Shown here piece after piece: positions 695-64,000 of a stretch of 64,000 nucleotides of DNA (position 1 is its first letter; each line of letters starts with the position of its first letter). The position numbers and the translations under genes were made by a program. The notes below the pieces were generated by a model that worked only from the letters and a program-made list of their open reading frames with translations, was not told the DNA's origin and ran no database searches. Source of the DNA: Squalus acanthias (lineage: Eukaryota); assembly GCA_030390025.1 (NCBI GenBank), contig CM059432.1, forward strand, positions 68,326,001-68,390,000, read 5' to 3'.

Positions 695-1993
695 ATGGCC
701 AGATGGAGGAGGGCCAACAGGCCTCTGTACAGGAGACCTTACCCTCCCAGGGTATTTCGCCAACAATTCACATATATTAATATGTCTGAGGAGCAGTGTT
801 TGTGAAGGCTGCGCTTCAGCAAGGAGGTAGTCACTGAGCTCTGCCACCTGCTGCAGCCAGATCTGCAGCCTCAACTGAGGTCCAGGACATCTCTGTCGGT
901 GGCAGTGAAGATCACAGTGGCTCTGAACTTTTATGCCACTGGCTCATTTCAATCAGCTACTGGGGACATCGCCAATATCTCTGAGTTCGCGGTGCATTGC
1001 TGCATCCGTCAGGTCACAAATGCGCTCTTTAAAAGGAGACGAGAGTACATCTCTTTCCCCATGGCCCCAGACAAGCAGCAAGAACGCGCAATGGGCTTTG
1101 CTAGGATAGCGGGCTTCCCCATGGTGCAGGGCACCATTGACTGCACGCATGTGGCTTTGCGTGCTCCGCATGAGAATGCCGAGGATTTCCGCAACAGAAA
1201 GGGGTTCCATTCCTTAAACGTTCAGTTGGTCTGTGACCACAGACAGCTGGTACTCGCTGTCAATGCCCACTATCCTGGCAGCTGCCACGATGCATTCATC
1301 CTGCGCCAGACTACTGTGGCAGAACCTTTCCAGGCACCGCATCAGCCAGTTGGTTGGCTTCTCGGGGACAAGGGATATCCACTGAGCACCTGGCTGATTA
1401 CACCGCTCCGTACACCCAACACCCCTGCTGAGCTGCGGTACAATGAGAGCCATCAAGCTACCAGGAACATCGTTGAGCACACAATCGGTGTGCTGAAGCA
1501 ACGGTTCCGCTGTCTGGACCATTCTGGAGGAGCCCTGCAGTACTCGCCTGAGCGAGTTTCCCACTTCGTAGTTGTGTGCTGCATGCTGCATAACCTGGCA
1601 ATCCTCAGGACCCAGCCAATGCTACCAGGCCTTGGAGCACCACCAGAGGAGGAGGAGGAAGAGGAGGAGGAAGAGGAGGAGGATGATCATCAGCAGCACC
1701 AAGGCGGGAGGGAGGCCCACAATGTAGAAACTGGAAGGGCCGTCCGTCAACGGCTGATAGCAAGCCACTTCTCGGCCCCTGCTGAGGAAATGGCTTCTGT
1801 CATTGAGAACAACATGAATGAAACCAACCCGACCAAGGCAGCAATGATTCCAAAGACCAAACATGTACATTTTGAAAACAAAAACTTATTTATTTTACAA
1901 ACTCTGTGTGTATCATTTCCTCATGACAAACTAATAGAAAGAAACACAAAAACACAGTCATTAACACAACTGGTTCTCACAACCTGGAGATAA
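695..1993 (+). pseudogene. Harbinger (HARBI1-like) DDE transposase, near-intact with one in-frame stop
   Basis: ORFs 602..805 and 899..1993 share a frame, separated by TGA 803-805. Motifs GTIDCTHV, GSCHDA, LGDKGYP, RNIVEHTIGVLKQRFRCL, CCMLHN and a poly-E tail. Confidence 0.92.
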
Positions 1994-2449: not shown

Positions 2450-3497
2450 CTCATCTTCACATAGGACAGCAACTCCCTGCTCGACCGACACACTGGCACT
2501 CCCACGGGGCAGCACGTCAGCATCCGGAGCAATCTGCTGGAGCACAGATTGCTGGCCTGCTGCAGCGCGGTGAGAACCCCGGGGAAATGTGTCCAAACCA
2601 GCGAGGATGGCAGCAGTCAGTGCTCGCGTGGCCTCAATCTGAGTCTGCATGAGAGCAGTCAGAGATGGGGTCATGGCAGCCATTGACTGTATTGCAGCAC
2701 TAAACATTTGCGTGGCATCCACCTGTGCTACAGCGAAGTGCTCCACACTCCTTGCCAGTGATTCAATGCATTTGGGCACCCTTCCCACTGCACCCATGAG
2801 CTGAGTGTGCATGTCCACCGCCTGGGTGTTCATTTCAGTGATGAGCTGCTCCTCCTCTGCGTCCAGTGCAGTAGGCCTCGTTAGCATACTCTCCCTCCGG
2901 GGAGAAGGCCCCCGAGCTTCCCTACCCCCATCGCGTTGCTGCAGCCCCGCTGGGTCCTGGAGCTTCACCCTCATCAGACCCTTCCCCCCTGCTCCCCTCC
3001 AGGGAAGGCGTGTTCCCAGTGTGGGCATGGGCTTCCTCGGGAGAGGGTGGTGCTGATGCTCCGCCTTCATCTTCCTCCTTGCCTGCAGCTTCACTCCCAC
3101 TGGCAGCTTGAGGGCCCGTCTCCTCAGCTGGTGAATCACCATCTGAAAGCAGGGAGGTACAAGAGTGGCTTTAGCGTGAGGACAGGGGGGAGTAAGGGAG
3201 GAATGAGTGCAGCGATTTAGTAAGTTGTATTGAAAGTGTCAAAGGCTGGTGTTGTGAGGGACAAGTGGAAGGACAGAGGACAAAAAGGTGATGGCCTTAA
3301 CATTGCTGTCCAGAACGGGGTCGGCGTCTCCAGTGGTGACGGGACCGATCACCCGGCTTGCCACAATCCTGTGGACGCGCGCCTCAAGATCGCTGAGGGG
3401 TTGCAGCTGAGGCTGCCCTCCACCCGTCCGTTGCTGCAGTCTCCTATTATGAGATAGCTTGGCCTGCATTAAAAAGGACGGCGTCTGAGTAAATATA

Positions 3498-3605
3498 CAG
3501 CCATGGTCTTGCCTGATGTGCCTCCCATAGGTGAATAGTCCTTACTGTATGCAGCCATGGTCTTGCCTGATGTGCCTCCCATAGGTGAATAGCCCTTACT
3601 GTATG
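3498..3605. repeat. Tandem duplication, 2 x 54 bp, in Myb intron 1
   Basis: CAGCCATGGTCTTGCC...CTTACTGTATG at 3498-3551 and 3552-3605, one mismatch. Confidence 0.95.
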
Positions 3606-5034
3606 CAAAGTGTGGAATGTGCGTGGGTGTTTCATGAGAGGGCCATAGGTGTTGGATGAGTGTTGGGCATTGGGGTTTTAAGACCCTCTGGCCATAGAGT
3701 GAGGTTGAGATGGAGGGATGGAGAGGTATTGAAAAAAAGCCACTCACCCTGACGACCCGAGTGAGGTCGTTGAACTTTTTTTGACATTGTATATGGGTCC
3801 TGGGCACCATGCTCCTGGAGGAGATGCTCTGAGCCACCTCCCTCCACACTTTTCTGTACTCGCGCGGCAAAGGCCTCCTGCCACTCTCAAGGAAGAGTAT
3901 AGATTTTCTGCGCTCCACCGCGCCAACCAGAAACTAAGCTCGTTCTCTCACACTATCCATAGTCCTTGGCTGGAAGATTTAGGCACAGGTCTCTCCAGGC
4001 CGAGATTCAAGGCTCCAATGAGCAGGGTGTGGCTGGAGTGCAAGATTGACCCTCCCCTTTAAGAACTGTCCGGCGCCAGTGTGTCTGTGTTCCATCGCTA
4101 ACTGACAGCACCTTAACAGGGTATACCATTGTGTTCTTTCCAAATCTGCAGACTTTAGGAACCTCGAACCTCCTGTTTCAACAAGGCTATTGATTCAGTG
4201 TCAACAACTTATCTTATCTCAAAAGCCTGTATGCTGTTTACAGCTTCTCCATTGTTGAGGCTTCCAGATTTTCAAACCCAGTTTGTCATGTTTTAATATA
4301 GTCAGAATTATTTGAAAGGACGGTGTATTTTTCTGAATATGGCGTATTCCTTCACACATTCGCTCCACACTCACAGCGACCCTGGAGACAAAACCTGCCA
4401 GAGACTCCTGCACCTGTTCCTAGAGTTCCAGCACCGCTCTCCTTCTGGATGGACCCGGAGGCACAGGGTCCACATGCAGCTGAGCCGAGCTGGCAGGGTC
4501 CTGCGCCCTCCGACGAGGACTCTACACTGCTGTCCCTGTCTCCACCATCTGCTGATGCTCACTTGTGAGCTGTGATACACCAGGTGACAACACTACTCTA
4601 CCTCGCGAAGGTCCCACCGAGGTGTGAGTGTCTGCGCTGGTGCTGTGTGCGCTGAATTCTGCTGACGCTGCACCCTCAGATTTGTAGCTTCCTCTGAGGT
4701 GTCTGGAGGCTCAGGCTGTTCCACCTGGACAGTGGGGACAGGGACTTTTGATGGTCCTGTGGGGGAGTAAAGGAAAGAGTTAGAGATGTGAGGTCAAGGT
4801 TGCATGCACATTGAATAGTGCAGATGATCATAATTCAATCTGTTAGAGCATCAGAATCATTATCAGTGACTCATGCAATGTCAATGAGAGAGATGCCAAA
4901 CTATTCTGTCACCAGCTTGCTGTGATGCGCCCTGTCTCTCCGTCCCCCAGAGAGTCAGAGTCATAGAGTTATACAGCACAGAAAGAGGCTCTTCGGCCCA
5001 TCGTGTCCGCGCAGGCCATCAAGCCCTGTCTATT

Positions 5035-7954: not shown

Positions 7955-8905
7955 TTAATTTAAACCCCCCCCAACAGTACTACCAAACCTCCCCACAAGG
8001 ATGTTGGTTCCGTTCCGGTTCAGGTGCAACCCATCCGACTTGTAAAGGTCCCACCTTCCACAGAAGCAGACCCAGTGATCCAGGAAACTAAAGCCCTCCC
8101 TCCTGCACCAACTCTTTAGCCACGCATTCATCTGCTCTATCCTTCTATTCCTATACTCACTAGCATGTGGCACTGAGAGTAATCCAGAGATTACAACCTT
8201 TGAGGTCCCGCTTTTTAATCTGCTACCTAGCTCCCTAAATTCTTGTTGCAGAACCTCATCCCTCTTTCTACCCATGTCATTGGTACCAATGTGAACCATG
8301 ACTTCTGACTGTTCGCCCTCCCCCTTCAGAATGCCCTGCAGCTGTTCAGTGACATCCTTGATCCTGGCACCAGGGAGGCAACATACCATCCTGGAGTCAC
8401 GTCTGCGACCACAGAAACATCTATCTGTTCCCCTTACGATAGAATCCCCTATCACTATTGCTCTCCCACTCTTTTTCCTCCCCTCCTGTGCAGCTGAGCC
8501 ACTCGTAGTGCCATGGACTTGGCTCTTGCTGCATTCCCCTGAGAAACCATCTCCCCCAGCAGTATCCAAAACGGAAAATCTGTTGGAGAGGGAGATGGAC
8601 CCAGGGGACTCCTGCACTACCTTCCTAGCTCTTTTACTCTGTCTGGCGGTCACCCATTTCCTGTCTGCCTGTGCACTCTTTACTTGCGGTGTGACCACCT
8701 CGTTAAACGTGCTATCCACGAAGATCTCAGTTTCACGGATGCTCCACAGTGACTTCAGCCGCAGCTCCAGCTCTGAAACGTGGATTTCGAGTAGCTGCAG
8801 CTGGAGACATTTCCTGCAGATGTGTTCGCCCTGCACACCGAAAGTGTCCCTGACTTCCCACATAGCACAGGAGGAGCACTCCACGCAGCCGAGCTGCCCT
8901 GCCAT
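7955..8905 (-). CDS. CR1 ORF1: zinc finger/leucine zipper + SGNH esterase-like domain (open, 316 aa)
   Basis: CSSC...CRKC followed by Leu heptads; GDSIVR, GTND and DGLHL blocks typical of vertebrate CR1 ORF1. Confidence 0.9.
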   Translation of the reverse strand: MAGQLGCVECSSCAMWEVRDTFGVQGEHICRKCLQLQLLEIHVSELELRLKSLWSIRETEIFVDSTFNEVVTPQVKSAQADRKWVTARQSKRARKVVQESPGSISLSNRFSVLDTAGGDGFSGECSKSQVHGTTSGSAAQEGRKKSGRAIVIGDSIVRGTDRCFCGRRRDSRMVCCLPGARIKDVTEQLQGILKGEGEQSEVMVHIGTNDMGRKRDEVLQQEFRELGSRLKSGTSKVVISGLLSVPHASEYRNRRIEQMNAWLKSWCRREGFSFLDHWVCFCGRWDLYKSDGLHLNRNGTNILVGRFGSTVGGGLN

Positions 8906-10390
8906 GTCCTACCCTTAATTTACTCCCTTTACTTCCTTTAAATTAAAGAATATTAAATACCCTAGGGACCTTACTTCCCTTTAAACACTACTTACTCTAA
9001 ACTAGAGACCTTACTTTGACTTTAACGACTGGACTGTAGAAATACTCACCAGGTCCTACTTACCAATCAGCTCCTTCCCTGGTTGTGACGTCACTTTAGC
9101 GGTTTCACAGTTGTTGCTGTTTGACTGCTCCCGCTCTCAGACTCTTTCCTTGGTGTAAAGTAAGAACCAATTCCTGCAGGGTGAAAAGTTAGGAAAAACA
9201 AAGGTGAAGCAAGGGAGCTCCTCCTTCCACTCCTCACTTAACTCCCTGACTCACCCAACTCGCAGCAGTCTGTTTAAACCGCACTCAGTCTCTGCGCTCG
9301 GTCTCCACCCAGGGCTGCTCTCGCTGCTGCTGCCAGTGAGTCTGGGCTGCTCTCTCTCTCCCCCGCTCTTTAAATCCTCGGTCTCTGCGCTCAGTCTCCA
9401 CCCAGGGCCGCTCTCGCTGCCTCTGCTGCTATCTGCCGTCCTCGATCCCAGCGATTTCCAGGGCCGCCTCCTCCCAGGCGGTGAGCTGGGCTACTGAGGG
9501 TGGCCCTCCTCCTGTCATGGATCTTTCCCTCTTATTGTGGGCTCTCTTTTCCTGCAATGAGCGACACAAGTGGAGTTTGAGTGAGAATGAAGGAGTGAGT
9601 GTAGAGAATCCAGAGCATAGATGCTTAGAAGGAGACAAAGGACCCTCCCTGTGTGTTGTAAGTTGTTGTCGTTGCATCACAGTGATAGGGAGTGTGAGGG
9701 CTGCATGGTCGAATAGTTAAGTGAATGTGACCATAGAGAGAGAGGGAATGGGTAAGGGTGCAGGGATGTAAGTGTCAAGTGGGATATGGAGGAAGCGGTT
9801 GGCAAAGCAGAGTGCTGGTGATGAGAGGCGATAGGGATCAGATTGAGGGTGATGGGAAAGTCATACTCACTTTTCCTGTGCGGAGAAGGTCATGAAACCT
9901 CTTCCTGCATTGCAGCCAGGTTCTGCGGCTCATCGAGATGGAGTTGACCTCCTGGGCCACTTGCAGCCACACAGCTTTAGACTGCTGGGGTGGCTTTTTT
10001 CTCCCTGAGGAAGGGAAGAGCACCTCCTTATTGGATCTTGCTCCCTCCACCAGAGCTTGGAGGGAGGGCTCATCGAAGCGTGGAGCACACTTTGGCCTAC
10101 TGGTGGACATAGTCGATCAATGAAGTGCTTACTACAATGGCCATAAAATTTGCAGTCTCCAGAAGAAGCAAGGCTGCTTGCAGGCCTTAAATCCAGCAGC
10201 ATTGATGATGTCATCGGAGGCATCTTTCTGGATGAAAAGACTCATTGGGCCAGGGGTTCCCACACGCTGGAAATCAATTGTCCAGTTAGGGGAAAATCGC
10301 ACTTTTTCCCTACTTCACTTCGGAGTCGGGGTGCTGACACGAATGTCACCTGACACGCCCCAGCTCGCCCACAATGGCAAAATCAAGCCC

Positions 10391-43339: not shown

Positions 43340-46300
43340 TTACTCCCCCTCAATGATTTCCCTCCCCTTTTGACTTCCCCCTCCCAACCCTACTGCTCCT
43401 CCATAATGTGGCCCCAGTGGCTGCAGCAAGGCTGGCGGAAGGGTGCTGAGTCTGGGAGCCAGAGACTGCAGATGGCCATCCAGGACGCCCTCGACCAGCT
43501 CTGGGCCTGGAAGGCCCGGCTGCAGACTGCACCACCTCAGCATGTGCGGCAGCAGTCTGGGATGTCTGGGTTACAGGCTGCAATGGCGGAGTGGCAGTGG
43601 TGGGAGCAGGAATGCTGTCACCTGAGAGAGGACAGGACCTTCCTGCTCGACCGACACACTGCCACTCCCCTGGGGCAGAACCTCAACATCTGGAGCAATC
43701 TGCTTGAGCACAGATTACTGGCCTGCTGCGGTACTGAGAGATCCCCGGGGGACTATGGGCGACCCACCAAGGATGGCAGCAGTCAGTGCTTGCGTGGCAT
43801 CAATCTGAGACTGCATGAGAGCAGTCTGAGACTGGCTGCCACCAACCACTGACTCCATTACAGTACTAAGCCATTGCATTGCTTTGGCCTGTGCTGCAAT
43901 AGCTGCTGCCACCTCACCCATCACACGCGGCATGAGGTCTGGGTCCCTACGGTCTCTCTGCGAGTCGAACATCCTTTGCAAACTGCCAAGGATGGGCTCG
44001 ATGGTGTGAGCAGAGCTGAGTGCAATGTTGGAGGCGGACTCCTTCACGCTCCTTGCCAGTGCATTCATGCTCTCGGGCACCCTTGCCATTGCACCCAGGA
44101 GCTTGGTGTGCATGCCCATCGCCCGTCTGGTCAACGCCGCCACATTGACTTCCTCATCTGAGTCCTGTGCAGCAGAACTCGTGCACGAACTCACCCTCCG
44201 GGGAGATGGTCCCTGAGCTTCCATTTCCCCCTGGCGTTGCTGCAGCCCGCTGGGTCCCGGAGCTTCACCCACATCAAACCCATCTGCAAGGCTCCCCTCC
44301 AGCGACCGCGTCACCCCATTATCAGGCCTAGTGCCTTCGGGAGAAACAGCCAGTGAGGCTCTGGCTTATTCTTCCTCCTCCTCTCCCGCGTCGCTGCCAC
44401 TGGGAGGCTGAGGGACAGGCTGGTCAGCTGGTGGCTGATTATCTGAAAGCATAAAGGCACAAGAGTGGGGTTAAGGTCAGGGGAGGGGGGCAGGAACATA
44501 AGAACATAAGAACATAAGAAATAGGCGCAGGAGTAGGCCAATTGGCCCCTCGAGCCTGCTCCGTCATTCAATAAGATCATGGCTGATCTGATCCTAACCG
44601 CCAATCTACTACCACAGAACCATCTCCTGAACCTAACAGAATTGGACACACGAAATAGGAGCAGGATCAGGCTACACGGCCCCTGGGCCCGCTACTCTAC
44701 CCACAGGGCCATGACCGATCCGAACCTAGACTCATGTCCAAATTCCTGCCCGCTTCCTGTAACCTTTAATTCCCTTTACTTCTAGGAAACTGTCTATTTC
44801 TGTTTTAAATTTATGTAATGATGTAGCTTCTACAGCTTTTTGGGGCAGCATATTCCATGGACCTACCATCCTCTGAGTGAAGTAGTTCCTTCTCATCTCA
44901 GTTTTGAAAGAGCAGCCCCTTATTCTAAGACTATGCCCCCTAGTTCTAGTTTCACCCATCATCGGGAACATCCTCCCTGCATCCATCCGATCCAACCCCT
45001 TCACAATCTTATATGTTTCAATAAGATCGCCTCTCATTCTTCTGAACTCCAATGAGTAGAGTCCCAATCTACCCAACCTCTCCTCATATGTCCATCCCCT
45101 CATCCCCGGGATTAACCGAGTGAACCTTCTTTGTACTGACTCGAGAGCAAGTATGTCTTTTCTTAAGTATGGACACCAAAATTGTATGCAGTATTCCAGG
45201 TGCGGTCTCACCAATACCTTGTACAACTGAAGCAATACCTCCCTATTTTTATATTCTATCCCCCTAGCAATGAAAGCCAACATTCCATTGGCCTTCTTAA
45301 TCACTTGCTGCACCTGCATACTAACCTTTTGAGTTTCGTGCACCAGGACCCCCAGATCCCTTTGTACTTCAGTACTTTCCAGTTTCTCGCCATTAAGATA
45401 ATAACTTGCTCTACTATTTTTCCTGCCAAAGTGCATAACCTCACACTTTCCAGTATTGTATTCCATCTGCCAAATCTCTGCCCACTTATTTAACCTGTCT
45501 ATGTCCCCTTGCAGATTTTTAATGTCCTCCTCACTCACTACTTTCCCTCCCATCTTAGTATCATCTGCAAACTTTGATATGTTACACTCGGTCCCCTCCT
45601 CCAAATCGTTAATATAGATTGTAAAGAGTTGGGGACCCAGCACTGACCCCTGTGGAACACCACTAGTTACTGATTGCCAGTCTGAGAATGAACCATTTAT
45701 CCCAACTCTCTGCCTTCTGTTAGATAGCCAATCCTTTATCCATGCCAGAATATTACCCCCAATCCCGTGATTTTTTATCTTAAGCAATAATCTTTTGTGT
45801 GGCACCTTGTCAAATGCCTTTTGGAAGTCTAAATACACCACATCCACTGGTTCCCCTTTATCCACCCTGTATGTTACTTCCTCAAAGAACTCCAGCAAAT
45901 TTGTCAAACATGTCTTCCCCTTCATAAAACCATGCTGACTTTGTCCTATTAAATTATGATTATCCAAATGTCCCGTTACTGTCTCCTTAATAATGGACTC
46001 CAAAATTTTACCTACCACAGATGTTAGGCTAACCGGTCTATAGTTTCCAGCCTTCTGTCTACTGCCCTTTTTAAATAAGGGTGTTACATTAGCAGTTTTC
46101 CAGTCTGCCAGGATCTTTGCTGAGTCCAGGGAGTTTTGGAAAATTATTACCAATGCATCCACAATCCCTACCGCCACTTCCCTCAAGACCCTAGGATGTA
46201 AGCCATCAGGTCCAGGTGATTTATCTGCCTTGAGCCCCATTATTTTACCGAGTACCACTTCCTTAGTGATTTTGATCGTGTTTAGCTCCTCCCCCCCTAT

Positions 46301-48075
46301 AGCCCCCTGTTTGTCCAGTGTTGGTATATTCTTAGTGTCCTCTACTGTAAAGACTGATACAAAATATTCATTCAGTGTATTTGCCATCTCCATATTTCCC
46401 ACCATTAATTTCCCGGTCTCATCCTCTAAGGGACCAACATTTACCTTAGCCACCCTTTTTCTTTTTATATAACTATAAAAACTCTTACTATCTGTTTTTA
46501 TATTTTTTGCTAATTTACTTTCATAATCTATCTTCCTTTTCTTAATCAATCTTTTTGTTATTTTTTGCTGTCTTTTAAAGTTTTCCCAATCCTCTATCCT
46601 CCCACTAGATTTGGCTACCTTATAAGCCCTTGTTTTTAGTTGAATACTATCCTTAATTTCTTTACTTAGCCACGGATGACTGTCTTTTCTTTTACACCCT
46701 TTTCTTCTCAGTGGAATATATATTTTTTGGAAGTTGTAAAATAACTCCTTAAATGTACACCACTGACCATGTATCGTCTTACCCTTTAATCTATTTTCCC
46801 AATCCACTCTACTCAATTCCGCTCACATACCATCATAGTCTCCTTTATTCAAGCTTAGCACGCTTGTTTGAGATCCAACCTTCTCACCCTCTAATTGAAT
46901 ATGGAATTCAACCATGTTATGGTCACTCATTCCAAGGGGATCCTTTACTAGGACATTTTTAATCAATCCTGTCTCGTTACACAGGACCAGATCTAAGGTT
47001 GCTTGCCCCCTGGTCGGTTCAGTTACATACTGCTCAAGAAACCCATCCCTAATACACTCAATGAACTCATCCTCAAGGCAGCCCTGCCCAATTTGATTTG
47101 TCCAATTAATATGATAGTTAAAATCCCCCATAATTATAGATGTTCCCTTATTACAAGCCTCAACTATTTCCTGATTGATACTCTGTCCAACAGAGTTGCA
47201 ACTATTCGGAGGCCTATAGACTATGCCCACTAGTGTTTTTTTCCCCTTATTATTCCTTATCTCCACCCAAACTGTTTCATTATCCTGATCTTTTGACCCA
47301 ATATCATTTCTCTGTATTACAGTGATTCCTTCCTTTATTAGGGAGCAAGGAATGGAGACAGTATACTTAGATGGAAAGTGGGAAGGGCTTGTTGTGTGAG
47401 GTGAAAGTGGTGAGAGAAGGGGGAGAGGTGATGAACATACCGTTGTTGTCCTCAAGGGGGTCGACGTCTCTGACGGCCACAGCACCCACGACCTGGGCCC
47501 CAATGATGTGCATTACTCACTCCTCCCGATCTGTAAGGGGGTGCAGGTCCGCCTCACCTCCTCCAGTTCATAGCTGCTCCCTCCTGTTGTGAGCAAGCTT
47601 GACCTCCAAGAAAAAGGACAGTGTGTGAGTGAGTGTGCAGCTATGTGTTTGGCAGATGTGCCTACCATAGTTGAATAGCTGTCAATGTATGCAAGGTGTA
47701 AGATGTGGATGTGACTTTTAGTAGGTGGGCATAGTTGGTGGGTGAGTGTTGGGGATGTGGCGGTTTATACAGTGTGTGCACAGAGTGAGGTTGAGATGGT
47801 GGCATGTAGAAGTTTTTGAAGCATGTACTCACCCTGACCACCTGAGTAAGGTCATTGAGTTTCTTCTGGCACTGGGTGAGAGTTCTGTGGACCGCACTTC
47901 TGGCCGACACGTCCTGGGCGACCTCCCTCCACATCCCCCTAAAGGCCTGTGGCAATAGCCTTCTGCCAGTGTCTGGGAAGAGCACTGCCTGTCGGCGTTC
48001 CACAGCTGCGACCAGAACCTCCACAGCGTGGTCGCTGAACCGGAGAGATCTCTCCCTGGGCCTCTGATCAGCCAT
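43340..48075 (-). pseudogene. Harbinger D Myb/SANT gene (exons 48075-47833, 47603-47441, 44442-43340)
   Basis: MADQRPRERSLRFSD...WREVAQ...QCQKKLNDL; GT-AG junctions; TGA stops in exon 2. Confidence 0.87.
44495..47340 (-). mobile_element. 5'-truncated young CR1 in Myb intron 2; ORF2 has a single in-frame stop
   Basis: ORFs 46823..47503 and 44732..46816 share a frame; KFADDTK; (CTTATGTT)n tail. Confidence 0.93.
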
Positions 48076-59348: not shown

Positions 59349-59852
59349 GTTTTTTTTTGTTCGTTTATGGGATGTGGGCGTCGCTGGCAAGGCCAGCATT
59401 TATTGCCCATCCCAAATTGCTCTTGAGAAGGTGGTGGTGAGCCACCTTCTTGAACCGCTGTAGTCCGTCTGGTGAAGGTACTCCCACAGTGCTGTTAGGT
59501 AGGGAGGTCCAGGATTTTGACCCAGCGACGATGAAGGATCGGCGATATACTTCTAAGTCAGGATGCTGTGTGACTTGGAGGGGAACTTGGAAGTGGTGGT
59601 GTTCCCATGCGCCTGCTAATCTTGTCCTTCTAGGTGGAAGAGGTCGTGGGTTTGGGAGGTGCTGCTGAAGAAGCCTTGGCGAGTTGCTGCAGTGCATCTT
59701 GTAGATGGTACACACTGCAGCCACAGTACGCCGGTGGTGGAGGGAGTGAATGTTTAAGGTGGTAGATGGGGTGCCAATCAAGTGGGCTGCTTTGGATGGT
59801 GTCGAGCTTCTTGAGTGTTGTTGGAGCTGCACTCATCCAGGCAAGTGGAGAG
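59349..59852 (-). mobile_element. 3' part of the second-family LINE, interrupted by the Gypsy element
   Basis: Reverse complement of 36440-36945 (SLHHRRTVAAVCTIYKMH). Confidence 0.9.
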
Positions 59853-60067
59853 TGTCATAAATCGCAAGTAACAACTCAGGAAGTACTACTGGGCGGCCAG
59901 CTGGGGCGCCGTCCAGGGAGTATAAATACTCAGGCATGGGCCCACCTTGGGCAGAGACAATCTGGAAACAGGAAGCTAGTGACTGCTAACTAGACCTCCA
60001 TGTTTTGTTACAAGTTGATTAAAGCCTTGCTTTATGTTCAAGTGCGTAGTGAGTCTTTATTACGTCA
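59853..60067 (+). repeat. 5' LTR of a Gypsy element (~215 bp)
   Basis: TG start exactly at the LINE breakpoint; TATAAATA 59921-59928; ATTAAA 60018-60023; CA at 60066-60067. The end is inferred because the 3' LTR is outside the window. Confidence 0.75.
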
Positions 60068-60167
60068 ATTTAATCAACTTGATATCGTCTCCACGCTTTG
60101 GGTGATTCGGAACAACCAGCTGCAACTCGAACCACAGAAGGGAACTTGGGCAAGAAACTGATCCATC

Positions 60168-63100
60168 ATGGAAAAACTCCTTAGACCCGCTCGTCTCGAC
60201 CTGGACCCGAATGCACCTGCGGCAGCAAAGGTATGGAAGCATTGGTTTCGTACCTTTAGCAACTTTCTTGAAGAATGTGGGGCGGATGTCCCTAATAAGT
60301 TACGAATGCTTATCAACTACGTGTCTCCTCATGTGTATGATTATATTGAGGACTGTATAGACTATGACACTGCTATCGAAATCTTACAGCAGCTATATGT
60401 CAAGTCCCCAAATGAAATCTTTGCTCGACACCTACTGGCCACAACTAGGCAGCAGCCTGGGGAATCACTCGATGAATTTCTCCAGAAACTTCGCAGGCTC
60501 AGCAAGGATTGTAACCTTAAAGCAGTTTCAGCTGAACAGTATCAAGAGGAACTAATCCGCGATTCCTTTATCAATGGAATCGCGTCCCCTTTTATACGTC
60601 AGCGCCTGCTGGAAAATAAAACCCTCAATTTACGGGCTGCTTATGACGAGGCGTGTTCCTTGGACTTGGCCAAGAAAAATGCAGACACTTATCTCCCACC
60701 ACGTGCACGGGCGGCGGCTATCTCCTTTAATGAGTCTTTCGGTAGGTCTCGGGCGGATGCCCCCACTGATGTTGACTCTACTCTAACGGACGACGACCCT
60801 ACCCTAGAGGCCTTCGCTGATGACGACCCCGCCCTAGCAGCATCCTGGCAATCAGGAAGAAAGTGTTTCTTTTGTGGAGGGGCGTGCCATCACAGAAAAT
60901 TTTGCCCGGCTCGTAATGTGACCTGCAATCATTGCAGCAAGAAAGGACACTTTTCCAAGGTATGCCAGTCATGGGCCTTTGCTAACAAGAAAGGCCGCTC
61001 CTCTAAAGTATACCGGTCGAGAGCTCCTGTTAGCTTCACAGCTGCTATCTATGGAGCTGCTTCTCCCCCAAGAACTACTGTTAAGGCTACAGTTGCCGAA
61101 GGGAAAATTGCCCCTCCTCCCATCACGGCTGTTTTTCCCCAAAGTTTGTCCCATGCAGCCACGAAGGTTTCAGTAAATGGGCACACTCTAAGCGCGCTAA
61201 TCGACTCCTGCAGCTCTGACAGCTTCATTAGTAAGCGGGCTGTCAACAGGTTAAAACTGCACATTTATCCCTCGGACAGGGAGATTGCAATGGCTCTGAC
61301 GACTCTGACCACCAATTCTTCTGGCTTCTGTCTGGTCAACCTCATCCTCAACGGCCGCACGTATCTCTCCACCCGGTTCGGAGTACTCGCAAACTTATGC
61401 AGCGATGTGCTTCTGGGACAGGACTTCCAGAAGCAGCACAAGAAGATCACTTTTGAGTTTGGAGGGTCAAGGCCGGAGCTTACCATTTCTAAGGTGCCGT
61501 TTTGTGCACTCTCGGCGGCCTTACTCGGTGAACCCTCCCTGTTTGCCAATCTTCCCCCCCGCTGTAAACCCATAGCCACCAAATCGCGGCGCTTTAGCCA
61601 AGATGATCGAGCGTTTATTGAGGCGGAAATCTCTCGCCTTTTAGTCGACGGTATTATCGAGCCATGTTCATCTCCCTGGCGGGCTCAGGTCGTCATCGTG
61701 AGGAATCCCTTAAAACAACATAAAAAACGTCTGTGTATCGATTATTCGCAGACTATTAATCTATATACCGATCTGGATGCCTACCCGCTGCCACGCATAG
61801 ATGACATGGTCAACGACCTTGCCAAATACAAGGTATTCTCGACCTTCGATTTAAAAAGCGCGTACCATCAGGTGCCACTGCAAGACTCCGACAAGAAGTA
61901 TACGGCCTTTGAGGCCAATGGTCGGCTTTTCCAGTTTCGCCGCCTTCCATTCGGGGTCACCAATGGGGTGGCCGTCTTCCAACGGGCCATGGATGGCCTA
62001 GTCCGGCAAGAGAACTTGACGGATACCTTTCCGTATTTAGACAATATCACTATTGCCGGCCATGATCAAAAGGAGCATGACGCCAATCTTCAGAGATTTT
62101 TTGACGTACTCCGCTGTCGCCACTTAACGTTAAACAAATCCAAATCGGTGAAGTCGGTGCCATCGGTGAACATTCTTGGCTACTGGGTGGGCAACGGTGT
62201 TATTAAACCGGACCCAGAGCGACTTCGTCCACTTCAGGAGCTCCCTCCCCCGACGAACCTCGGCTCTCTTCGTCGGGCACTTGGCATGTTTGCTTATTAC
62301 GCAAAATGGATACCACACTTCTCCGATAAAATACAGCCCCTGCTCCATGCGAAGTCTTTTCCATTGGAAGCTATGGCTATTTCTGCCTTCAACCTCCTCA
62401 AACGACAGCTGGAGAAAGCCACGCTTCGCTCCATTGACGAAAATCTTCCTTTTGTGGTCGAATGCGATGCATCGGAGGTGGCGATCGCCGCTACCTTGAA
62501 TCAAGGTGGCCGACCCGTGGCATTCCTATCCAGAACCTTGCAGGGTAGCGAGCTCCATTACCCCCCCGTCGAGAAGGAGGCTACGGCCATCATCGAGGCT
62601 GTACGCCAATGGGGTCATTTTCTTGCTCGGCGTCATTTTACGCTTATAACTGACCAGCGCTCTGTGGCCTTCATGTTGGATAACCGGAGGCGCACGAAAA
62701 TCAAAAATAATAAAATTCAACTCTGGAGGAGTTGGCTGGCTGCCTTTGGATATACTATCTGTTACCGACCCGGCAAACAGAACGTGGCCCCAGATACCTT
62801 CACACGGGCATTTTGCTCCTCAATGTCAACGTCGACTCTGGCGGATTTGCATATGGACTTATGCCATCCTGGTGTGACCCGCATGTTGCACTTTGTGCGC
62901 TCCAAAAATCTACCATTTTCAACCGAGGACGTAAAGAAAACATGCTCCTCCTGTAGGATTTGTGCAGAATTGAAACCACAATTCTTTCGCCCATCAGATG
63001 GCTTACTCATACATGCAATGCAGCCTATGCAGAGGCTCAGCATAGACTTTAAAGGGCCATTGCCTTCGTCGACAAGGAACACCTACCTACTTACGATAGT

Positions 63101-64000
63101 GGACGAGTATTCACGCTTTCCCTTCGCCTTCCCCTGCCCTAATATGCTTACCTCTACGGTAATTAAATGCCTCGATCAGGTCTTTTCCCTTTGCGGGACG
63201 GCCAATTTTATCCACACTGATCGGGGTCGCTCCTTTACGTCGAGTGAACTTAAAAGTTATCTCTCCCAACGGGGAATCGCCTCCAGTAGGACGACACCAT
63301 ATCACCCAATCGGTAACGGACAGGTTGAACGATACAATGCCATCATCTGGAACGCTGTCCGTCTGGCACTAAGGTCACGCAACCTGCCGGACCAGCAGTG
63401 GGAAACGGTGCTCCCCGACGCGTTACACTCTATCAGGTCTCTTCTCTCCACATCTACTAATGTCACGCCTCATGAGCGATTCTTCAAATTCCGGCGTCGC
63501 TCTACACATGGGACGTCTCTACCGTCATGGTTGGTGGCTCCAGGCCCGGTGCTACTCCGGAGGTTCGTCCGGTCTGCCAAAAACGACCCTCTCGTTGACG
63601 AGGTGGAGTTAACGGAGGTAAACCCCACGTATGCGCACGTACGGTACCCTGATGGCCGGGAGACCACCGTCTCGCTCCGAGATCTGGCTCCCTGCCCAAC
63701 CGGTCACACGGGCCCGAATGATGAAGGATCCCCCGACAATGATATCAACACTCCGCACCCCTATGAAAATGACGCCCCGCCTGGGACATCTGGGGATCTG
63801 CCGGCAACGCTACCGGATCAACTCAGGGAGCTGGACGCTCCCTGTAGGATGGCCACCCGAAACCAGGACGCCGGACAATCTCCAGCCACGACCCGGGATG
63901 AGGCCAGCTCAGCACCTGTGGGGACCCGCACCCGGAGTCATGATATTCCCAGTCCTCCACAGGATGATCAAGATGACGCGGACTCTACTGACTTACCGGT
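60168..64000 (+). CDS. Ty3/Gypsy Gag-Pol polyprotein, single uninterrupted ORF running off the window
   Basis: Manual translation from MEKLLRPARLDLDP finds no stop: two CCHC knuckles, protease LIDSCS, RT (FDLKSAYHQ, LPFG, YLDN), RNase H (CDAS, EKEA), integrase (HHCC, IDFKGP, TDRG, GQVER). Order PR-RT-RH-IN. Confidence 0.95.
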   Translation, partial: MEKLLRPARLDLDPNAPAAAKVWKHWFRTFSNFLEECGADVPNKLRMLINYVSPHVYDYIEDCIDYDTAIEILQQLYVKSPNEIFARHLLATTRQQPGESLDEFLQKLRRLSKDCNLKAVSAEQYQEELIRDSFINGIASPFIRQRLLENKTLNLRAAYDEACSLDLAKKNADTYLPPRARAAAISFNESFGRSRADAPTDVDSTLTDDDPTLEAFADDDPALAASWQSGRKCFFCGGACHHRKFCPARNVTCNHCSKKGHFSKVCQSWAFANKKGRSSKVYRSRAPVSFTAAIYGAASPPRTTVKATVAEGKIAPPPITAVFPQSLSHAATKVSVNGHTLSALIDSCSSDSFISKRAVNRLKLHIYPSDREIAMALTTLTTNSSGFCLVNLILNGRTYLSTRFGVLANLCSDVLLGQDFQKQHKKITFEFGGSRPELTISKVPFCALSAALLGEPSLFANLPPRCKPIATKSRRFSQDDRAFIEAEISRLLVDGIIEPCSSPWRAQVVIVRNPLKQHKKRLCIDYSQTINLYTDLDAYPLPRIDDMVNDLAKYKVFSTFDLKSAYHQVPLQDSDKKYTAFEANGRLFQFRRLPFGVTNGVAVFQRAMDGLVRQENLTDTFPYLDNITIAGHDQKEHDANLQRFFDVLRCRHLTLNKSKSVKSVPSVNILGYWVGNGVIKPDPERLRPLQELPPPTNLGSLRRALGMFAYYAKWIPHFSDKIQPLLHAKSFPLEAMAISAFNLLKRQLEKATLRSIDENLPFVVECDASEVAIAATLNQGGRPVAFLSRTLQGSELHYPPVEKEATAIIEAVRQWGHFLARRHFTLITDQRSVAFMLDNRRRTKIKNNKIQLWRSWLAAFGYTICYRPGKQNVAPDTFTRAFCSSMSTSTLADLHMDLCHPGVTRMLHFVRSKNLPFSTEDVKKTCSSCRICAELKPQFFRPSDGLLIHAMQPMQRLSIDFKGPLPSSTRNTYLLTIVDEYSRFPFAFPCPNMLTSTVIKCLDQVFSLCGTANFIHTDRGRSFTSSELKSYLSQRGIASSRTTPYHPIGNGQVERYNAIIWNAVRLALRSRNLPDQQWETVLPDALHSIRSLLSTSTNVTPHERFFKFRRRSTHGTSLPSWLVAPGPVLLRRFVRSAKNDPLVDEVELTEVNPTYAHVRYPDGRETTVSLRDLAPCPTGHTGPNDEGSPDNDINTPHPYENDAPPGTSGDLPATLPDQLRELDAPCRMATRNQDAGQSPATTRDEASSAPVGTRTRSHDIPSPPQDDQDDADSTDLP

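Follow-up and report, generated by a model that had tools for sequence, protein, structure and literature searches.

A Ty3/Gypsy retrotransposon of Squalus acanthias that probably primes reverse transcription with a piece of its own RNA

The 3' end of the window (the whole 64,000-nt stretch of Squalus acanthias DNA that was analysed, from contig CM059432.1) hosts the 5' end of an intact, recently amplified Ty3/Gypsy element. This element probably primes minus-strand DNA synthesis with a 13-nt piece cut from its own RNA; self-priming as such, by whichever route, is very likely. The 5' end of the element was the subject of an earlier reading made from the sequence alone. The features of the element are as follows (window coordinates unless stated).

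59848..59852 (+): left target-site duplication GAGAG; its second copy lies past the 3' LTR
59853..60067 (+): 5' LTR, 215 bp, TG...CA, with bounds set by the 3' LTR
59921..59928 (+): TATA box TATAAATA, identified from sequence
59952..59953 (+): predicted transcription start at A59953, 32 nt after the TATA box, where variants cluster (suggestive only)
59965..60006 (+): predicted RNA hairpin in R, upstream of the primer (folding prediction)
60011..60023 (+): candidate self-primer and partner of the PBS, with a predicted cut after 60023 (complementarity and folding)
60018-60023 (+): ATTAAA, a poly(A)-type hexamer forming the final six bases of the left arm
60044..60065 (+): predicted U5 stem-loop just 5' of the PBS, within the 45-nt loop
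60069..60081 (+): primer-binding site (PBS), 1 nt past the LTR end and without TGG; complement of 60011-60023
60082 (+): recurrent-mutation hot spot adjoining the 3' side of the PBS; putative end of plus-strand strong-stop DNA
60168..64000 (+): single gag-pol ORF of 1313 aa, with its stop at window-equivalent 64109
G000:C8:68390148-68390362 (beyond the window): 3' LTR, identical to the 5' LTR and preceded by a polypurine tract (PPT)

The LTR start (TG at 59853) and end (CA at 60067) agree in 17 of the 19 other copies fetched first, and the remaining two have no 3' LTR inside the fetched stretch. The LTRs of the window copy are identical over all 215 positions, and 5-bp target-site duplications are present in 141 of the 156 copies with two LTRs. 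The ORF encodes Gag with zinc-knuckle motifs, protease, reverse transcriptase (RT), RNase H and integrase. The protease-RT-RNase H-integrase order, direct LTRs, PPT and target duplication are those of a Ty3/Gypsy element, and the best relative of solved structure is the Ty3 RT. A 20-base Gag-start pattern has 653 matches in the 3.7-Gb genome and the LTR pattern has 1,890, so the family is both young and large. The RT active site reads YLDN rather than YxDD (window 62038-62049), and the family is clearly active; among 60 aligned relatives, the last motif position is N in 52 and YLDN itself is found in 46. A second copy (L002/L045, G000:C1670:408924-413600) shares its flanks and target duplication with the window insertion and is a haplotig or segmental duplicate.

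Downstream of the LTR end there is a single A and then the right arm of the inverted repeat, with no TGG. The arms at 60011-60023 and 60069-60081 are 13 nt long, 100% complementary and separated by 45 nt. The missing TGG and the complementary arms had been described in the sequence-only reading, whose points hold: the LTR end at CA 60067 is upheld by the 3' LTR and the 17 copies described above (an LTR ending elsewhere, named there as counter-evidence, was not found), the complementarity and the inclusion of ATTAAA in the partner are exact, and the distance of approximately 85 nt from TATA box to partner is a fair estimate (90 nt from the first TATA base, 83 from its end). The arm pair is the only perfect inverted repeat within 59800-60300, and a 13-nt complement to the PBS zone arose in 1 of 20,000 dinucleotide shuffles of the LTR. 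The 251-nt region overall folds no better than shuffled sequence (z -0.42); the 13-bp helix is predicted in both the minimum free energy and centroid structures, with a local pairing probability of 0.97. An Rfam search of 59800-60250 gave no matches.

The pairing is retained within the family. Among 185 distinct copies, which were chosen by several routes, some requiring parts of the motif (29 subfamily-B copies were chosen for their PBS variant), all 13 Watson-Crick pairs are kept in 144/150 copies of subfamily A and 23/35 copies of subfamily B, and another 11 subfamily-B copies have 12 pairs and one G-U. On C1 and C2 up to 172 Mb, the motif list includes 67 of the 68 copies recovered with the Gag pattern only (compared by eye), so the bias from motif selection is small. 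The sister subfamily, B, has altered both sides of the pairing in a matched C/G swap: its PBS carries A60076G, and the partner base is C in 24 of the 35 matches, T in 10 and G in one. One copy, L395, is A-type apart from a subfamily-B base in its PBS (1/14 diagnostic sites). Chance alone would produce one or two changes of this kind, and the copy is therefore not counted as a case of priming in trans. In L452, the partner was lost through a deletion between GCC repeats, which is uninformative on pairing. A looser LTR/PBS pattern gave no more matches than a control pattern, and tracing of LTR variants from parent to daughter yielded no usable pair.

The same arrangement is found in related elements. 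Of 80 metagenome loci, 30 have a Gag start, three of these with too little upstream DNA, leaving 27 evaluable loci, several of them siblings. Nineteen of the 27 show 12 or more exact pairs between the sequence 1 nt after a CA and an upstream segment, all in one register; four others have 10-11 pairs, one has 7 in register and three (L113, L127 and L129, omitted from the family counts) have none. Twenty-one family representatives, five from the same genome and 16 from metagenomes, encode proteins 48-94% identical to the window protein. On the protein tree of these families there are 30 pair-to-pair changes, and only 13 of 273 cells are non-pairing. Watson-Crick pairs fill 222 of 234 cells (18 distinct PBS 13-mers) versus a permutation mean of 169 and maximum of 192 (10,000 permutations), figures that overstate significance since the permutation ignores kinship and the register is that of the best match. 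Pair columns 4-9 and 11-13 switch between Watson-Crick types among families, and the LTR-PBS match averages 12.1 nt within a family versus 6.0 nt across families. Loop lengths span 24-68 nt. In nearly every case the partner terminates in TAAA; (A/G)C comes next and then, as a rule, a small hairpin. A canonical AATAAA or ATTAAA closes the partner in 13/21 families, and five families keep the pairing despite non-canonical terminal hexamers. In the metagenome copy L057 (98.8% identical to its sibling), both LTRs carry a G>T change that is mirrored by C>A in the PBS, and the base next to the PBS on its 3' side is changed as well. In L060 both LTRs are changed and the PBS is not, as expected of a first-generation error, but this copy is not supportive. 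The pairing is real and conserved, and it is probably functional. Records of the clade's proteins come from crustaceans, cnidarians, an ascidian, a mussel, a nematode and cartilaginous fishes; viral contigs gave no relative, and the ESM Atlas returned generic RT clusters only, with no clade name.

Evidence for the primer end comes from position 60082. In subfamily A this site takes 18 parsimony steps for 20 variant copies among 128, the most of 4,079 internal sites, and the runners-up take 10 steps, at CpG sites (step counts are approximate, given recombination in the family and a mostly star-like copy tree). With this site left out of the tree building, its variants are distributed nearly at random (17 steps vs. 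20.2 shuffled), while a marker 65 nt away follows the tree (7 steps vs. 38.9 shuffled). The variant frequency is flat with LTR divergence (5/44, 9/42 and 7/45), and 60082 surpasses all 53 other sites in a TGA context. In subfamily B, 14/35 copies are changed, with all four bases and a deletion represented, and no other site has all four bases in at least two copies each. Genome-wide, 115 subfamily-A copies are non-A at 60082; among the 100 matches listed, 86 have G, 14 have C and none has T. T, the base expected from read-through beyond 60011, is found in 2/35 subfamily-B copies. A similar hot spot is known in Ty1 beside tRNA-type PBSs. The hot spot marks the primer end, which here coincides with the end of the LTR complement; it provides independent support for a PBS that is re-copied from a primer ending with this complement. 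For Tf1, copying of the primer by RT into the PBS tail and addition of untemplated bases have been reported (available passages of PMC11042837). From the sequence variants, plus-strand strong-stop DNA would end at 60081, and the copied primer would be 13 nt long with its 5' end at 60011. What is new here is that copy errors mark the primer end, in a natural record of replication left by several hundred near-identical copies. Together with the LTR end and with the conservation in relatives (19/27 loci, 30 compensatory changes, 21 families) that the sequence-only reading had called for, the hot spot makes its self-priming interpretation very likely.

Experiments have demonstrated self-priming in Tf1 of fission yeast, and the trait counts as a hallmark of the Tf1/sushi chromoviruses. 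A TGG-type tRNA PBS is absent from the window copy and from 21/21 families, and the best PBS-tRNA match is 7 nt, internal segments included, in a comparison with just 8 distinct tRNA sequences of 5 types. Like Tf1 and Tf2 of Schizosaccharomyces pombe, Tj1 and the Tf1/sushi chromoviruses in general, the element has, in place of a tRNA PBS, post-LTR sequence that is complementary to a segment of its own LTR; it also has a predicted U5 stem-loop beside the PBS and a PBS apparently rebuilt from the primer with untemplated additions (available passages of PMC10085805, PMC7175516 and PMC11042837 describe these Tf1-type features). Unlike these elements, it has the RT motif YLDN and no Pfam chromodomain hit up to E 5 in either the C-terminal 236 aa or the whole ORF, its 13-nt partner ends in a poly(A)-type hexamer and sits approximately 58 nt downstream of the predicted transcript start, not at the start itself, and a second cut or trim would be needed. 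Of the three duplexes of the Tf1 pretzel, the central duplex and the U5 stem-loop are predicted here; no consistent duplex was predicted to join sequence on the 3' side of the PBS with LTR sequence following the primer. Because of the chromodomain and pretzel results the element is not filed under Tf1/sushi, and the tree contains clade members only, with no named references. By analogy, the mechanism would be a variant of known self-priming that works like that of Tf1 (available passages of PMC7175516, PMC10085805, PMC4600332 and PMC5341516).

Self-priming has been predicted for the plant lineages Tcn1 (Gypsy) and TAR/Houba/Osr-1 (Copia) from LTR-PBS complementarity of at least 10 nt (PMC6317226, available passages). 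These share the predicted mechanism and differ in their plant hosts and lineages; as far as those passages show, their primer ends were not deduced from copy errors. Dictyostelid Skipper and fungal GalEa also have no tRNA PBS and no TGG after the LTR but, unlike the window element, are described in the available passages of PMC5006619 and PMC6934838 with a polypyrimidine tract or internal hairpin and no LTR complement. In the full-text literature, which mostly does not extend to subscription journals, neither self-priming in a chromodomain-less animal Gypsy element nor priming by the 3' R was found in the passages available (PMC3601003, PMC6238403, PMC7197481, PMC2864245 and PMC4668388 were also covered), and a full-text search did not link YLDN with Gypsy. 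Copying of the cap is not a subject of the PMC4668388 passages.

The RNA may start near 59953, judging from TATA spacing and weak junction signatures in the sequence. A TATA-like box lies 25-35 nt before the partner in 0/21 families, and 72-90 nt before it in each of the five own-genome lineages examined, all of which have an A 32 nt after the box. At C59952 there are 103 variant LTRs (G in 96 of the 100 matches listed), ten-fold more than the 9 at a control C six bases away (1 G, no pairs). The C59952G change is present in about 26 LTR pairs (counted by eye) and, in subfamily B, in 1/165 LTRs plus L451. Copying of the cap would put a G at this site, a hint that strong-stop DNA in some cases extends as far as the cap. 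In addition, among 131 subfamily-A LTR pairs, the only two multi-base substitutions common to both LTRs are both at 59951-59953. However, most copies with C59952G have inherited it (22 copies, 13 steps vs. 20.7 shuffled; 0/22 on a background present in 47/126 other copies, p 1e-4), and three distinct events near the start give p 0.006 in a 3-nt window and p 0.10 in a 9-nt window, so that C59952G and the multi-base changes are only suggestive as a sequence marker of the start. L393/L451, whose LTR seems to begin exactly at 59953, was rejected as a start marker: it carries a later insertion into the LTR, with U3 upstream. L392 breaks at 59957 and has a short upstream flank. With a start at 59953, both ends of the primer would have to be made by cleavage.

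Four rearranged copies representing three independent events (L417/L278 at C2:121178887, L419 and L420 on C36, and L418 at C25:14935031) switch strands through the 13-bp pairing. In these copies LTR and PBS run into the reverse complement of the partner, R and U3, and three continue into the PPT and body; L278 and L418 are flanked by 5-bp target duplications. L418 contains a minus-sense U5 piece with a blunt end at 60023/24, a single case, which is the junction that a cut 5' template would give. Three head-to-head LTR pairs (G000:C19:19464713-19464804, C27:8858154-8858245 and C1:101167155-101167246) have their symmetry centre in the loop of the R hairpin (~59985) and are probably fold-back products of reverse transcription.

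The model tentatively preferred, as the single most likely route, is priming in cis by the 5' copy of the partner, which is favoured by folding proximity and the one blunt 60023/24 junction. Transcription would begin near 59953, 32 nt after the TATA box. The nascent RNA is predicted to pair 60011-60023 with 60069-60081 over a structured 45-nt loop, hiding the ATTAAA of the 5' LTR. RNase H would then cut after A60023, as in Tf1, and the new 3'-OH would be extended from 60068 through U5. Removal of the RNA 5' of C60011, as the 60082 hot spot suggests, would leave the 13-nt primer. Finally, the plus strand would copy the primer and rebuild the PBS, often adding one untemplated base that becomes fixed at 60082. 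Since such copying rebuilds the PBS from the primer, PBS and LTR would co-vary automatically.

A doubtful but serious alternative is self-priming in which the partner copy within the 3' R serves as primer, either from the same RNA looped back or from a second packaged RNA. Here the tail would be cut after ATTAAA and the new 3' end would pair with the PBS; strong-stop DNA would reach the cap and fold onto the adjacent 3' R, and RNase H would trim the RNA to the 13 nt protected by the PBS. Were this so, which is unlikely, the clade would prime with the 3' end of its own RNA, and priming and the first strand transfer would be one fold-back event. The C59952G excess, with its LTR pairs and its presence in subfamily B, and the two shared multi-base changes at 59951-59953 fit this route, but are subject to the inheritance and window-size effects noted above. 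The 5'-copy route places the end of strong-stop DNA at 60023, and there is no error hot spot at that position (4 non-A LTRs and no pair, vs. ~1,890 normal LTRs), again as the 3'-R route has it. L417 and L419/L420, which continue past the PBS into reverse-complemented R, U3, PPT and body, have the form expected of a 3'-end template, and none of the four rearranged copies stops at the predicted start; yet a template switch over the 13-bp homology explains the read-through copies equally well. The 5' copy is separated from the PBS by 45 nt and is the predicted occupant of that site (0.97), and L418 indicates a cut 5' template, both of which favour priming in cis.

The remaining two explanations fare less well. 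In an exact Tf1 geometry, the packaged RNA would start at or beside 60011, the primer would be its first 13 bases, and the TATA box at 59921 would serve another transcript or none. No second cut would be needed for the primer to begin at 60011; in Tf1 the first 11 bases are used (PMC7175516) and Tf2 has alternative start sites (PMC5341516), according to the available passages. This geometry is nevertheless improbable, given the positions of the TATA-like boxes described above, a start that would be a pyrimidine, a poly(A) hexamer within the first 13 bases, and C, the cap-templated base, in just 14 of the 100 listed variants at 60082. Very improbable is a helix that is regulatory only, hiding the poly(A) signal of the 5' LTR, with a tRNA fragment or other host RNA as primer. 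It would account for the canonical hexamer at the partner end in 13/21 families, and the set of tRNAs compared was small (8 distinct sequences, 5 types), but the PBS is family-specific and tracks each LTR, which a conserved host RNA could not match. Moreover, the five families with non-canonical hexamers still pair, a single nucleotide always separates the LTR end from the right arm, and the LTR complement stops where the 60082 hot spot lies. As an additional role, masking of the 5' LTR poly(A) signal by the modelled helix is plausible in the window family, and not universally, given the 13/21 canonical hexamers.

Self-priming thus appears here in a chromodomain-less animal clade, with a primer seemingly excised from within R and overlapping the poly(A) signal. 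If this is correct, self-priming would have had an independent origin or would follow a different route in this clade, 3'-end formation would be tied to priming, and the element would be free of both tRNA supply and silencing by tRNA fragments.

Several other observations were made in the same genome. Two more families of the clade (L191, L211 and L214-L216; L161 and L212) share the primer core, have a TATA box and carry an R hairpin whose sequence differs. L213 (G000:C19:4681441-4688424) consists of internally deleted tandem copies with common LTRs and resembles the integrase-independent tandem insertions of Tf1. Two non-CpG positions change often, 59997 by T>G and 59947 by T>C, and the two LTRs of one copy mostly differ there; these are possibly DNA-templated RT error sites or assembly errors. 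Elsewhere in the window, a Harbinger-type transposase (DDE_Tnp_4) with its Myb/SANT partner, a GDSL-esterase ORF1 and a LINE RT make up an ordinary repeat landscape, and the repeats carrying these ORFs are located as follows.

806-1993 (+): repeat carrying one of these ORFs
3469-3933 (-): repeat carrying one of these ORFs
7955-8908 (-): repeat carrying one of these ORFs
44732-46822 (-): repeat carrying one of these ORFs
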